The translations under genes were made by a program, and so were the position numbers. 50,126 bases of DNA from Escherichia phage AugustePiccard, in sequence record MZ501051; one strand, written 5' to 3'. The number at the start of each line of letters is the position of its first letter. Position 1 is the stretch's first letter. Of the stretch, positions 33,937-50,126 are shown in pieces. The notes below the pieces were generated by a model. That model ran no database searches and was not told the origin of the DNA. It worked only from the letters and a program-made list of their open reading frames with translations.

Positions 33937-34037
33937 TTCATTACCTCGATAGCATTTTTTGTTAAAAGTCATTCTGATTTGATGGTAGTATTGTACTCAA
34001 TTAAACGCTACAAGACAATTTTTATAGGAATTTAGAT

Positions 34038-37038: not shown

Positions 37039-37226
37039 TTGGAATCTGCGTAAAAACAAATGGACGCTTTACACTGCTCGAGGATTACGAAATCAACTTT
37101 GATTCAGGCGGCGCAATAACAGTAAAAGGAGAAGATGAATTACATTGGTTCCTTAGTTATCAAGGTGATGGCTACTACGGTTGCACGGATTGCTACGGAA
37201 AAGAAGTTAGCTTCTTAGTAGAATAG
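37035..37226 (+). CDS. hypothetical protein
   Basis: ATG 37035 with RBS GGAGGA; ATGA overlap with upstream stop. Confidence 0.45.
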   Translation: MIGICVKTNGRFTLLEDYEINFDSGGAITVKGEDELHWFLSYQGDGYYGCTDCYGKEVSFLVE

Positions 37227-37266
37227 CACTTTTTGTTAAAACTCAAATCCAGGGATGGATTATATT
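37222..37266 (+). promoter_or_regulatory. box promoter (variant box)
   Basis: ATAGCACTTTTTGTTAAA, 22 nt, TATATT. Confidence 0.5.
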
Positions 37267-39135: not shown

Positions 39136-39179
39136 ATAGCACCTTTTGTTAAAACAGTAGCCGCGAAAGCGGCTATTAT
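39133..39179 (+). promoter_or_regulatory. box promoter upstream of HNH copy 3
   Basis: AAATAGCACCTTTTGTTAAA, 22 nt (contains hairpin GCCGCGAAAGCGGC), TATTAT. Confidence 0.55.
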
Positions 39180-46533: not shown

Positions 46534-46746
46534 ATGAAGATGAAAAACGTTATTATTGAAGATATTCACTTTGACCAAGCTGAGGTAGGAATCGCAAAAA
46601 GCGTTCGCGGAAACGTTGTATATCTGAACTTCGATCCAGATAACTACGGGGACGGCCAGACACTGATGCAGTACAGTCCTGAGCAAGCACGCAAACTGGC
46701 GGCGGCGTTAATCATGGCAGCGGACGAGGCGGAGAAGCAGCGATAG
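46534..46746 (+). CDS. hypothetical small protein
   Basis: ATG after box promoter and leader (CATCGACAACAAAGAGGAA). Confidence 0.45.
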   Translation: MKMKNVIIEDIHFDQAEVGIAKSVRGNVVYLNFDPDNYGDGQTLMQYSPEQARKLAAALIMAADEAEKQR

Positions 46747-46786
46747 CACGAATTGTTAAAAAGGGATTCATCCTGACTGGTATAAT
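46743..46786 (+). promoter_or_regulatory. box promoter upstream of the long kinase leader
   Basis: ATAGCACGAATTGTTAAA, 22 nt, TATAAT. Confidence 0.6.
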
Positions 46787-47908: not shown

Positions 47909-48042
47909 TTTACATCCACACGTACTACACTGGCAAGTTTAACAGTGTTAAGCACATTAGTGTTCACGATACGTACGATAGCGCAAAGGCTCAGTGGTTG
48001 GTTCTTGGCGGCGATATTAATTCATATAGAGTTGCTGAATAG
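47905..48042 (+). CDS. hypothetical small protein (45 aa)
   Basis: ATGA overlap with upstream stop; its stop TAG is part of the next box. Confidence 0.3.
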   Translation: MIYIHTYYTGKFNSVKHISVHDTYDSAKAQWLVLGGDINSYRVAE

Positions 48043-48082
48043 CACTAATTGATAAAACAGCATTGGGGTAATTTGCTATAGT
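48038..48082 (+). promoter_or_regulatory. box promoter (variant)
   Basis: ATAGCACTAATTGATAAA, 22 nt, TATAGT, leader CCCCATCGAAACGAGCGAGG. Confidence 0.55.
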
Positions 48083-48681: not shown

Positions 48682-48921
48682 ATGTTCGGACTAGAGGATT
48701 CATACTTCAACGCAGTAAAGCGACAGGCTGACAAGCTTAACGATGAGTACAGCAAGCTGACACCAAAGCAGCGAAAAGACAACCATGTTGTTGCCGCACT
48801 AATCACGCAAGTCTGGGGTCCTGTATCGACGCTAATTAGTCGAGATAAATTTACCTGGATAGCAGGGTACAGGCGCGGTCGTGTTGGTCATGACGAGAAT
48901 GGGAATAGCCTTTATGAGTGA
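48682..48921 (+). CDS. hypothetical protein
   Basis: 79 aa after box promoter and leader. Confidence 0.45.
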   Translation: MFGLEDSYFNAVKRQADKLNDEYSKLTPKQRKDNHVVAALITQVWGPVSTLISRDKFTWIAGYRRGRVGHDENGNSLYE

Positions 48922-48978
48922 GTTAACAATCTGGTTTATCTCAGGTCTGATTACTTGGGCTTACTTTATGGTGGCGGC

Positions 48979-49215
48979 ATGAGAACATTGAGACAGATTT
49001 TACACGGCTGCAAGAAGCATCATTACACCTACTTTCGTGATATTAAATGGTTCGAGGATGCTTGTTGTATAGATGGTTGCAAAACGAAGCTAGTATGCAA
49101 GAAATGCCATCATGTTGAGAATAGCAAGGTAGATATGATGATTTGCCGCAGCGCACTTGATTACATTGCGTATGAAAAGCTCAAGACGCTCAAAAAACTA
49201 ACAACTAAACCGTAA
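48979..49215 (+). CDS. Cys/His-rich zinc-finger-like small protein
   Basis: C..C...C / C..C.H pattern (CCIDGCKTKLVCKKCHH). Confidence 0.4.
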   Translation: MRTLRQILHGCKKHHYTYFRDIKWFEDACCIDGCKTKLVCKKCHHVENSKVDMMICRSALDYIAYEKLKTLKKLTTKP

Positions 49216-49229
49216 TTGTTAAAAAGAGC

Positions 49230-49258
49230 TTGCATCACTGACCGGAATTATCTAATAT
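49230..49258 (+). promoter_or_regulatory. sigma70-like promoter (TTGCAT-17-TAATAT) for the ncRNA/tRNA transcript
   Basis: -35 TTGCAT at 49230-49235, 17-nt spacer, -10 TAATAT at 49253-49258. Confidence 0.45.
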
Positions 49259-49264
49259 TAACCA

Positions 49265-49557
49265 CGTAGACAAAAGAGGCCACCGAGTGGCAACGGCGCG
49301 CGGAGCGCACTACACGGCAAGTCCGCTGCTCATTAAGTAGCGTATGCGGCGCATCTGGTCCATGAGGATAAGGCGTAAACCTCAATCAACTTCCCAGTAT
49401 GGGCTTTATTCCCTTAGGGACTTGTAAGACCTAGCGCAAATAGGCCGACATGGTCCAAGTCGAAAAAACTGACCAGACCTGAGCATGTCACTAAACGAGC
49501 TTTCTGTAAATCGGTCGTTTCAGGCGACCCCGGAGCCGTAACCGGGACTCATTCTAA
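49265..49557 (+). ncRNA. candidate structured non-coding leader RNA upstream of tRNA-Arg
   Basis: About 290 nt without a credible ORF, between a promoter and the tRNA; contains local hairpins (GGCCACCGAGTGGC, GGTCGTTTCAGGCGACC). Confidence 0.3.
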
Positions 49558-49635
49558 GCTCTGCTAGCTCAATTGGACAGCAGCAACGACCTTCTAAGTC
49601 GTAGGTTACTGGTTCGAATCCAGTGCGGAGCGCCA
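49558..49635 (+). tRNA. tRNA-Arg (anticodon TCT)
   Basis: Cloverleaf: acceptor GCTCTGC/GCGGAGC, anticodon stem ACGAC/GTCGT, loop CTTCTAA, T-arm ACTGG-TTCGAAT-CCAGT, encoded CCA; D-arm slightly irregular. Confidence 0.75.
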
Positions 49636-49662: not shown

Positions 49663-49845
49663 ATGAAAACTGTAACATTCATCGTAAAAGATTGCGGGAC
49701 TGGCACCGTTCAGAAGTTTAACGCGAAATTAACCTACAACAAAGGCGACAGCAAAGAAGTTAAAGGCTCTCTGGGCGGAGTAATGGTTGAGGCTCGACTC
49801 CCAATTATCTACCCTGATGACGAGCGCCGCAATGTGGGACGTTAA
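49663..49845 (+). CDS. hypothetical protein
   Basis: 60 aa downstream of the tRNA. Confidence 0.4.
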   Translation: MKTVTFIVKDCGTGTVQKFNAKLTYNKGDSKEVKGSLGGVMVEARLPIIYPDDERRNVGR

Positions 49846-50014
49846 ACTTTCAATTAGATTAATGGGGCGCAGTTGCAAGAATTGCACTCAAGATTATATC
49901 GCGTCAGTTGCCGCAATCAGCGCTGAGGATGCGGTAGCGAAAGTAAAAGAGTTGTCAGGCGCTGACCCTGATACTCACAAATTCCTGGTAGCTTACGTTC
50001 GTGAGCGAAAGTAA
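49832..50014 (+). CDS. hypothetical protein
   Basis: ATG 49832 overlapping upstream stop; track ORF starts earlier at a non-ATG codon. Confidence 0.35.
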   Translation: MWDVKLSIRLMGRSCKNCTQDYIASVAAISAEDAVAKVKELSGADPDTHKFLVAYVRERK

Positions 50015-50048: not shown

Positions 50049-50074
50049 CGTTGTTTTTAGCCCTCGCTTGAGGG
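50049..50074 (+). terminator. rho-independent terminator
   Basis: AGCCCTC-GCTT-GAGGGCT plus T7. Confidence 0.75.
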
Positions 50075-50084
50075 CTTTTTTTCG

Positions 50085-50093
50085 TCTGTAATA
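50085..50093 (+). promoter_or_regulatory. extended -10 promoter (TGgTATAAT) feeding the terminase genes
   Basis: TG-n-TATAAT after a terminator, followed by RBS AAGGAGG and the window end. Confidence 0.35.
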
Positions 50094-50126
50094 TGGTATA
50101 ATCTTGCTTCAACAAAGGAGGATAAC

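Follow-up and report, generated by a model that had tools for sequence, protein, structure and literature searches.

The Leader and Its Probable Transcription

We examined a locus of Escherichia phage AugustePiccard (MZ501051) at which a putative promoter, a leader and a tRNA-Arg gene follow one another on the + strand. The window, that is, the whole 50,126-base stretch of DNA analysed, is the complete genome of an Rtp-like coliphage (Drexlerviridae, Braunvirinae); its position 1 is the ATG of terS, the small terminase gene. The leader (49265-49557) lies some 500 bases upstream of terS, and the leader-tRNA locus lies at the end of a block of small + strand open reading frames (ORFs). Our comparison with related phages, the nearest being Escherichia phage JulesPiccard (Bas03; 93-95% identity over the leader region), indicates that the leader is a real structured RNA whose structure is under selection. 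An initial annotation, made from the letters alone, had described about 290 nt without a plausible ORF at this place, and this holds: because the ORFs overlapping 49259-49557 are all short (45 aa or less) and the leaders of relatives are set apart by large indels of lengths not divisible by three (e.g. 50, 58, and 72 columns), the stretch 49265-49557 is non-coding. A leader peptide following the Shine-Dalgarno-like AAGAGG was considered and rejected; its start codon is present in some relatives and missing in TR2, KOX1, and Tempevirinae, and the frame is not conserved.

The putative sigma-70 promoter (49230-49258, + strand) comprises a -35 hexamer TTGCAT (49230-49235), a 17-nt spacer with the conserved CACTGACCGG, and a -10 hexamer TAATAT (49253-49258). 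The sigma70-like letters that the initial annotation pointed to are thus present, and the site is conserved in relatives; yet they match only 7 of 12 consensus positions, and a consensus scan of the region (one promoter-like site found, 2.6 expected from shuffles) did not report them. The homologous site in other Drexlerviridae reads TTGACA, TTGACG, or TTGACT, followed after 17 nt by a -10-like hexamer. Upstream, at 49216-49224 (+ strand), lies a promoter-associated element, TTGTTAAAA, half of the phage's ATAGCACnnnTTGnTAAAA repeat, that is, of the repeat ATAGCACnnnTTGTTAAAA found before five other promoter-like sites in the genome. Since the homologous site is conserved and the half-repeat is shared with other promoter-like sites, the promoter appears credible by conservation, not by its match to consensus, and would start transcription at about 49264-49265.

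The sequence TTGNTAAAA occurs in 8 copies against 3.8 expected, all on the + strand, five of them with ATAGCAC and a downstream -10-like hexamer. The repeat ATAGCA(C/T)nnnTTG(T/A)TAAAA is found at 33949-33967, 37223-37241, 39136-39154, 46743-46761, and 48039-48057 on the + strand, each copy with a -10-like hexamer ~25 nt downstream; the leader promoter has only the TTGTTAAAA half. A 21-nt direct repeat in phage TLS is the same element (PMC11447400), and the repeat probably marks a class of phage promoter.

Directly behind the leader, at 49558-49635 (+ strand), ARAGORN identifies tRNA-Arg with anticodon UCU, as the initial annotation had proposed; the Rfam model RF00005 also recognises a tRNA there, and the CCA is encoded (49633-49635). 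The RF00005 score is 56.9 bits against a gathering score of 29, with the full model covered; ARAGORN finds this single tRNA, tRNA-Arg(tct), in the whole window. The gene is ~80% identical to chromosomal E. coli tRNA-Arg. The AGA enrichment that had been named as a check is also present: over 69 non-overlapping window ORFs, AGA reaches 12.1 and AGG 8.6 per 1000 codons, with AGA accounting for 25% of Arg codons and for 14.2 per 1000 codons in structural genes. In E. coli, AGA usage is roughly 2 per 1000 codons; as phage usage is high by comparison, it is reasonable to regard tRNA-Arg(UCU) as a supply for the AGA codons of the phage. Because a scan of 49258-49558 returned neither a terminator nor a promoter-like site, the leader and the tRNA are probably made as one precursor, and to that extent the suggested co-transcription can be upheld. 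Given established tRNA maturation, RNase P would be expected to cleave this precursor at 49557/49558.

A Conserved RNA Structure

The structure was assessed in an alignment of 20 leaders, whose conserved blocks are split by indels of whole hairpins. RNAalifold predicts five core hairpins, with compensatory double changes in 11 of 27 predicted pairs. In a 31-pair structure counted over 595 cells, pairing reaches 97.6% (87.8% when columns are shuffled), and both sides have changed in 11 pairs (58 cells); none of 500 shuffles matched the observed pairing percentage, the double-change counts, or the covariation score. Control structures slid by 1-3 columns gave at most 3 double-change pairs and 24-41% pairing. 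G-U pairs are tolerated on the + strand (e.g. columns 74/94 and 266/272) and would be A-C mismatches on the opposite strand, so the folded molecule is the + strand transcript. Single-sequence folding stability was uninformative (z = -0.15 for the whole leader, -0.05 to -0.93 for its parts). It is therefore covariation, and not stability, that demonstrates the local hairpins noted in the initial annotation.

The leader opens with a single-stranded 5' motif, CGUAGACAAAAGAG (49265-49278, + strand), at or next to the predicted transcription start. Its consensus is CGURRACAnAMGAG, with G3, U4, C8, A9, A11, and A14 invariant among 17 hand-parsed variants from six or more lineages. Three hairpins follow on the same strand. 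P1 (GCCAC-CGA-GUGGC, 49279-49291) shows double changes in 4 of 5 pairs within Braunvirinae and 13 distinct complementary stems family-wide. P2 (GCGC-GCGGA-GCGC, 49296-49308, loop RCGGA) is invariant within Braunvirinae and has 9 distinct complementary stems in other lineages, its loop being mostly GCGGA or GCGAUA. P3 (49321-49350) has an outer helix, G(U)CCGC/GCGGC with a bulged U, around UGCUCAUUAAGUAGCG, and overlaps the family-wide AAGUCS motif (49319-49325). One pair of the outer helix carries double changes (GC in 16 sequences, AU in 4) and another occurs as UG, CG, and UA; the inner 3-bp helix has one-sided changes only. A long-range closing helix, GUAG/CUAC (49266-49269 with 49310-49313), is also predicted. 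It has counterparts in LF82-11 and Tempevirinae, is missing in the TR2 type, Rogunavirinae, and Webervirus, and must be taken as tentative.

The central part (49351-49513, + strand) is variable, with up to four optional hairpins present or absent in alignments A1 and A2: Va (49365-49384, loop AUAAGGCGUAAA), Vb (49393-49403), Vc (49411-49419), and Vd (CCUA-GCGCAAA-UAGG, 49430-49444). These were read from the sequence, all on the + strand, and Vd is without covariation. The segment 49445-49509 is common only to the window phage, JulesPiccard, and Rtp, and in the shortest Braunvirinae leaders (IMM-001, AN_ECEAS) the variable region is missing entirely or except for Vd.

Beyond the conserved flank AAUCGG, which overlaps the first base of P4, two abutting hairpins complete the + strand structure. 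P4 (GUCGU-UUCAG-GCGAC, 49514-49528) shows double changes in 3 of 5 pairs in Braunvirinae; family-wide, its second pair occurs as UA, CG, GC, or AU, its third as CG, UA, AU, or GC, and its fifth as UG, AU, CG, or GC. P5 (CCCGG-AGCCGUAA-CCGGG, 49529-49546) shows double changes in 2 of 5 pairs, and the end of its loop is CCGUAA (rarely GCGUAA or CAUAA) in every lineage having the P4-P5 module. The tail, ACUCAUUCUAA (49547-49557, + strand), ends at the expected RNase P site and carries AUU 4 nt after P5 in nearly all lineages. A kissing interaction between the loops of P2 (RCGGA) and P5 (UCCGU) was also considered, these being complementary in some lineages; it was dropped, the changes in TR2, DTL, and Tempevirinae being uncompensated.

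Distribution and Cargo

A blastn search found the leader in 91 phage records, nearly all of Braunvirinae coliphages, and the downstream ORF orf60 in 7; by this measure, the leader is better conserved than its coding neighbours. The wider family was traced from the divergent ESCO41 leader, by exact-pattern scans, and through the downstream small ORF; the leader is conserved in more than 130 records across subfamilies. Versions occur in Nouzillyvirus, Rogunavirinae (Sf12, phiEB49, Phagiculus, Sd1), LF82-11, Sauletekiovirus (Pantoea phage AAS23), Tempevirinae (IsaakIselin and relatives), Webervirus (Klebsiella phages), and uncultivated contigs. Their order is fixed: strong promoter, leader, none to three tRNAs, small ORF(s) including phrog_2919, a strong intrinsic terminator, and terS. 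No R1-model leader match and no tRNA were found in phages whose TerS is a relative at 45% identity.

What follows the leader differs by lineage: tRNA-Arg(UCU), tRNA-Arg(CCU), Trp and Arg, Arg and Val, Ser, or three tRNAs. In AAS23, L087, L101/L102, Tempevirinae, and Webervirus, no tRNA stands behind it. Judged from this distribution, the leader family is independent of tRNA-Arg, and the leader seems to be older than the tRNA genes, which look like cargo that came in behind it. Directly after tRNA-Arg, another tRNA-like gene of unusual length is found in PCEc3 (L003, 1816-1917), where it is annotated as tRNA-Ile (102 nt), and in ESCO41 (L020, ~1182-1241, and L089), where it gives a sub-threshold partial tRNA match of 26 bits.

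The leader is longest (290-370 nt) in tRNA-bearing lineages. At the other extreme, a minimal metagenomic form (L080, L082) has P4-P5 alone directly after the promoter. With the R2 model of P4-P5, the window gives exactly one match (72 bits); JulesPiccard (L001, 1832-1955) and A110b (L006, 894-1017) each carry the module twice in tandem, the loop of the second copy being AAUCAUAA and not AGCCGUAA. Tempevirinae have a CCGUAA-bearing hairpin with a 7-bp stem, then a U-tract (U4-U8) as in an intrinsic terminator, then a ribosome-binding site. The Webervirus leader is limited to the 5' motif with P1, the AAGUC sequence, and a single GC hairpin, which adjoins the ribosome-binding site.

The occurrence of the leader outside phages was also considered. 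A host origin was rejected, as blastn with the leader gave no match among 5,426 E. coli genomes. In unrelated bacteria there are 13 exact 19-nt matches to P5, all without the context of the module, and R2 gives one weak match (E = 0.16); bacterial occurrence was dropped as well. As to host labels, the record named Campylobacter phage A110b (L006, MG065688.1, UNVERIFIED) carries a typical Braunvirinae coliphage leader and tRNA, and the phrog_2919 ORF is also present in 21 "Campylobacter" records; these labels look doubtful.

Neighbouring Genes and the End of the Unit

Two small + strand ORFs follow the tRNA in the window. The variable orf60 (phrog_16862, 49663-49845) has a match in only 7 phage records. 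By a 14-nt overlap it is joined to the phrog_2919 ORF (49832-50014; E = 8e-29; 788 phage records), which is the constant protein-coding member of the unit and stands directly after the leader where the tRNA is missing. The phrog_2919 product has 60 aa with the signature KLxIRLMGRxCxxC and invariant G-R-x-C-x-x-C, A, A, and K. Its AlphaFold model is beta-beta-alpha-beta with fair confidence (pLDDT 83). Searching the PDB with this model gave nothing with E below 1, the weak top matches being the RNA polymerase epsilon subunit and T7 Gp2, and a Pfam search gave no match; the idea of an evident RNA-binding partner was accordingly dropped.

The unit is closed by an intrinsic terminator, AGCCCUCGCUUGAGGGCU followed by U7 (50059-50085, + strand, from the terminator scan), and an equivalent strong terminator (5-6 G+C-rich pairs, U6-U7) is present in 15 of 15 lineages examined. 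Within ~10 nt there follows an extended -10 promoter-like site, TGGTATAAT (50094-50102, + strand), which by its conservation may serve terS; just after the terminator it is kept as TGGTATAAT, TGCTATAAT, TGGTACAAT, or TGATACAAT in 10 loci. The same succession (50059-50102 in the window) is seen in L003-L005, L010, L011, L020, and L071-L073, and the couple of terminator and promoter upstream of terS is kept across subfamilies. Because of this conserved terminator and the immediate promoter-like site, the unit appears insulated from the late genes, and its own products appear to be its purpose.

On the other side of the leader promoter, the + strand carries two further small ORFs. Directly upstream lies a Cys/His-rich ORF of 78 aa (48979-49215), with no PHROG match and no Pfam match above threshold, present among the relatives examined only in the window phage and JulesPiccard; the ORF at this position in TR2 and IMM-001 is annotated as a transcriptional repressor. 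A hydrophobic ORF of 33 aa (48881-48982, MSELTIWFISGLITWAYFMVAA...) precedes it; Rtp, SU57, and Sf12-like phages likewise encode this ORF just ahead of their leader promoter. GC skew shows no switch near the locus, and a replication origin there was rejected on that ground.

Possible Functions of the Leader

For the upstream RNA, the initial annotation had offered a processed leader or a small regulatory RNA; a non-coding RNA behind a conserved promoter is borne out, and both options are possible. Our preferred, though tentative, proposal is that RNase P releases the leader here as a stable RNA with an autonomous role, the binding of a partner. Under this model, the host sigma-70 RNA polymerase would start near 49264-49265 and make one precursor, in which the RNase P cut at 49557|49558 would both make the 5' end of the tRNA and free a leader of ~293 nt. 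The freed leader would be a product and not a spacer, persisting through its compact fold (5' domain P1-P3, optional hairpins, and coaxial P4-P5) and acting in trans on a host or phage partner, its likely contact surfaces being the invariant unpaired elements, namely CGURRACAnAMGAG at the 5' end and the loops of P2 (RCGGA) and P5 (CCGUAA). In tRNA-less lineages, its 3' end might arise through the hairpin plus U-tract (Tempevirinae, Webervirus) or through cleavage within the conserved tail, in which AUU comes after 4 nt. The tRNA genes would have joined the unit later as cargo, behind the leader and ahead of the phrog_2919 ORF, where transcription is high and nothing is translated. The proposal is favoured by those lineages in which promoter, structured RNA, hairpin, and U4-U8 are laid out as in a small-RNA gene. 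As for a role confined to the control of translation in cis, the evidence argues against this being the conserved function, because in tRNA-bearing lineages RNase P would separate leader and mRNA, and it is these lineages that preserve the leader in its longest and most elaborate forms.

Several points weigh against a stable RNA acting in trans. The transcription start, the RNase P cut, the accumulation and stability of the leader, and its partner are all inferred, and a literature search found no transcript data for these phages. Matches complementary to the 5' motif within the phage number 4, with 5.5 expected, and thus do not exceed chance. Where no tRNA is present, the leader is simply the 5' untranslated region of an mRNA, and a cis role fits equally. 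Since Webervirus has no more of the leader than the 5' motif with P1 and a single hairpin, the functions of the parts may differ. The 5' motif occupies +1 to +15, and the promoter spacer shares in its conservation, so that it could act as DNA (an operator or an effect of the initial transcribed sequence), and the 11-nt tail left by RNase P cleavage would be open to 3' exonucleases.

The main rival, possible but in our judgement rather less probable, is a cis-acting element of expression and processing that would be inactive after release: it might shield a long untranslated transcript from Rho and nucleases, offer RNase P the 5' end of the tRNA or RNase E the tail, or lend stability to the mRNA downstream. 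The leader is indeed fixed between promoter and cargo in every lineage, P4-P5 and tail always stand 9-12 nt before the first tRNA or just before a ribosome-binding site, the minimal form is promoter and P4-P5 only (L080, L082), and tRNA genes have come to lie repeatedly right behind the leader, as if it made a good expression slot. However, a passive role leaves unexplained the invariant loops and linkers among covarying stems across subfamilies, as well as the expansion to 290-370 nt and the tandem duplication of P4-P5. Moreover, E. coli tRNA genes need no leader of such kind.

A bolder form of the stable-RNA proposal, which we consider unlikely, would make the leader a new class of compact phage RNA acting on host machinery and present at a high level from the start of infection in most T1-like phages. 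It could be a decoy or inhibitor of a tRNA-directed host enzyme or of an anti-phage anticodon nuclease, or else an RNA that binds RNA polymerase or cleaves itself. This is suggested by tRNA-like details (CGUAA and its stem as a tRNA-Thr anticodon loop, a T-arm-like P5) together with the linkage to tRNA cargo.

Antitermination of the put or nut type is, in our estimate, quite improbable. Here the nascent P4-P5, alone or with a phage protein, would modify polymerase so that it passes the 50059 terminator as well as the many others in the late region of 23 kb. The unit does lie upstream of the + strand structural genes, and the P3 loop UGCUCAUUAAG resembles boxA. Adjacent stem-loops, just after the promoter (L080) or ~250 nt downstream (window), parallel HK022 putL and putR, which need no tether to polymerase (PMC9378689), and the T1 late region has been described as terminator-flanked modules (PMC11447400). 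Yet the strong terminator with its immediate, conserved extended -10 promoter-like site for terS in all lineages is a layout of insulation; there is one copy per genome, against two in HK022; the 5-bp stems are unlike the long bulged stems of put; Webervirus is without the module; and the boxA-like sequence occurs in Braunvirinae only.

A riboswitch or attenuator, whose core would sense a ligand, a protein, or a tRNA and so control a downstream terminator or ribosome-binding site, seems very unlikely. Such a device would account for a conserved core with a variable 3' end, for the Tempevirinae arrangement of CCGUAA hairpin, U4-U8, and ribosome-binding site, and for the Webervirus GC hairpin beside its ribosome-binding site. 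In the window and in all tRNA-bearing lineages, however, neither a terminator nor a ribosome-binding site follows the leader, RNase P would uncouple the ORF, and no Rfam riboswitch matches.

We regard as scarcely probable that the leader works at the level of DNA, whether as operator, pac site, or origin, or that it is a relic without function, left for instance by decayed tRNA genes. Nearness to terS and conservation of the promoter spacer and of +1 to +15 would suit the former. For the latter, which the initial annotation had raised as a degenerate tRNA remnant, certain resemblances can be read from the sequences: CGUAA plus stem equals positions 34-38 of the tRNA-Thr(CGU) loop, UAAGUCG is part of the anticodon arm of the neighbouring tRNA-Arg, and the P5 stem CUGG/CCAG of some lineages is the T stem of the tRNA. 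For the hairpins, both are largely refuted by compensatory changes and strand-specific G-U tolerance, which are those of a folded + strand RNA. A decaying remnant would show no compensatory changes, and the remnant reading fails for that reason; in addition, the tRNA covariance model is silent in 49150-49557 at E<=10, ARAGORN scores no part of the leader, and conservation in more than 130 records across subfamilies would not be expected of a relic. Least credible is a new self-cleaving ribozyme cutting ahead of the tRNA or ORF, with P4-P5 and tail, which are also the minimal form, as its core: a conserved core of ~50 nt with invariant loop and tail nucleotides, in a non-coding phage RNA beside tRNAs, would fit, but no known ribozyme class matches, no pseudoknot or long-range pairing is supported (the P2-P5 loop kiss being without covariation), and RNase P already provides the cut.

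Significance

The T1-like phages (Drexlerviridae) rank among the coliphages and Klebsiella phages isolated most often, and both therapy cocktails and the BASEL reference collection make use of them. No regulatory RNA is on record for this family, and the programme of its gene expression is little understood. The leader is a covariation-supported family absent from Rfam, at a fixed locus that would be strongly transcribed, with invariant single-stranded motifs that resemble recognition sites. Its slot also offers an explanation for where T1-like phages acquire tRNA genes, which differ in identity and stand in the same place. The model is testable in obtainable phages: Bas02 (JeanPiccard) and Bas03 (JulesPiccard) have leader plus tRNA, and Bas10 (IsaakIselin) has the terminator-ended form. 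If the RNA merely aids expression, it would still be a compact natural cassette for high-level expression of tRNA.

Comparison with Known RNAs

The leader was compared with the 4227 models of Rfam 15, which include riboswitches, ribozymes, RNase P, 6S, tmRNA, Y-like RNAs, GOLLD, and ROOL. The window leader gave no match at gathering score or at E<=10, and the leaders of nine other variants gave none at E<=1; the scan suggested in the initial annotation thus confirms the tRNA and leaves the stretch upstream of it without any family match. Two likenesses were tried and rejected. A mimic of RNase P RNA was suggested by the words CUGACCAGAC, CAAAUAGG, and AAGUCCG (with bulged U), shared with M1 RNA; the alignment score was reached by 75 of 500 shuffles, these words lie partly in a variable insert, and no Rfam RNase P model matches. 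A CsrA sponge of the CsrB/RsmZ type was dropped because only the P2 loop (GCGGA) exposes GGA, the other GGAs having their G's in stems. A literature search found no description of the leader RNA, which may be one of 10,006 candidates left unnamed in a large virome screen (PMC10690425).

The layout of a small-RNA gene ended by a terminator is not that of the window; it is seen in Tempevirinae leaders (7-bp stem and U7-U8) and weakly in Webervirus. With respect to boxA (YGCUCUUUA), the P3 loop UGCUCAUUAAG (49327-49337) has one mismatch to UGCUCUUUAA, the form found in rrn and lambda nut sites; it is partly paired in our model and found in Braunvirinae only. The lambda PR' leader (6S RNA) and the rrn leader, with its boxA antitermination, are also comparable, and Stx phages carry tRNA genes in the PR' leader. 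Like these, the locus has a strong constitutive promoter and an untranslated leader ahead of late or stable-RNA genes, with a boxA-like P3 loop; unlike them, its boxA-like sequence is lineage-restricted and partly paired, and terS has its own promoter-like site.

In HK022, putL and putR each consist of two adjacent stem-loops and need no tether to polymerase (PMC9378689). P4-P5 likewise forms two abutting, covarying hairpins of 5 bp each, a module of ~33 nt plus tail. Both would be nascent phage RNA, with adjacent stem-loops just after the promoter or ~270 nt downstream, put needing no protein cofactor. The target of put is the zinc-binding domain of the beta' subunit of RNA polymerase, and termination is suppressed. 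Yet put is ~70 nt long, with long bulged stems and a triplex, and occurs twice per genome, once behind each early promoter and before terminators that are read through, whereas the leader module has 5-bp stems and a single copy in the window, and at the end of its unit a new promoter-like site lies behind a conserved terminator.

Closer in setting are RNAs associated with tRNA genes. The stable RNAs C and D of phage T4 (species 1 and 2) are untranslated, structured RNAs of the tRNA cluster, matured by host tRNA-processing enzymes. The leader would resemble them as a phage-encoded structured RNA in one precursor with tRNAs. They lie, however, among or after the tRNAs and are partly tRNA-like, whereas the leader precedes the tRNA, is not tRNA-like by model score, and also exists without a tRNA. 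In E. coli 3'ETS-leuZ and in RNAs of the MALAT1/mascRNA type, the ends are set by tRNA processing or RNase P. We propose the same for the leader, its end being defined by tRNA processing and not by a terminator, yet those RNAs are spacer or trailer pieces, or eukaryotic, whereas the leader is a long 5' leader that would have to be released.

GOLLD and ROOL often adjoin tRNA genes. They share with the leader the character of conserved, ornate, modular non-coding RNAs of phages (PMC12286853). At 500-800 nt, present in Rfam, and forming multimeric cages, they are nonetheless unlike the leader of 60-370 nt, which is without an Rfam match. Overall, the leader belongs to none of the T4 stable RNAs, the tRNA-precursor RNAs, HK022 put, or GOLLD and ROOL; it is a new RNA family of a known general kind, the phage non-coding RNA in a tRNA operon.

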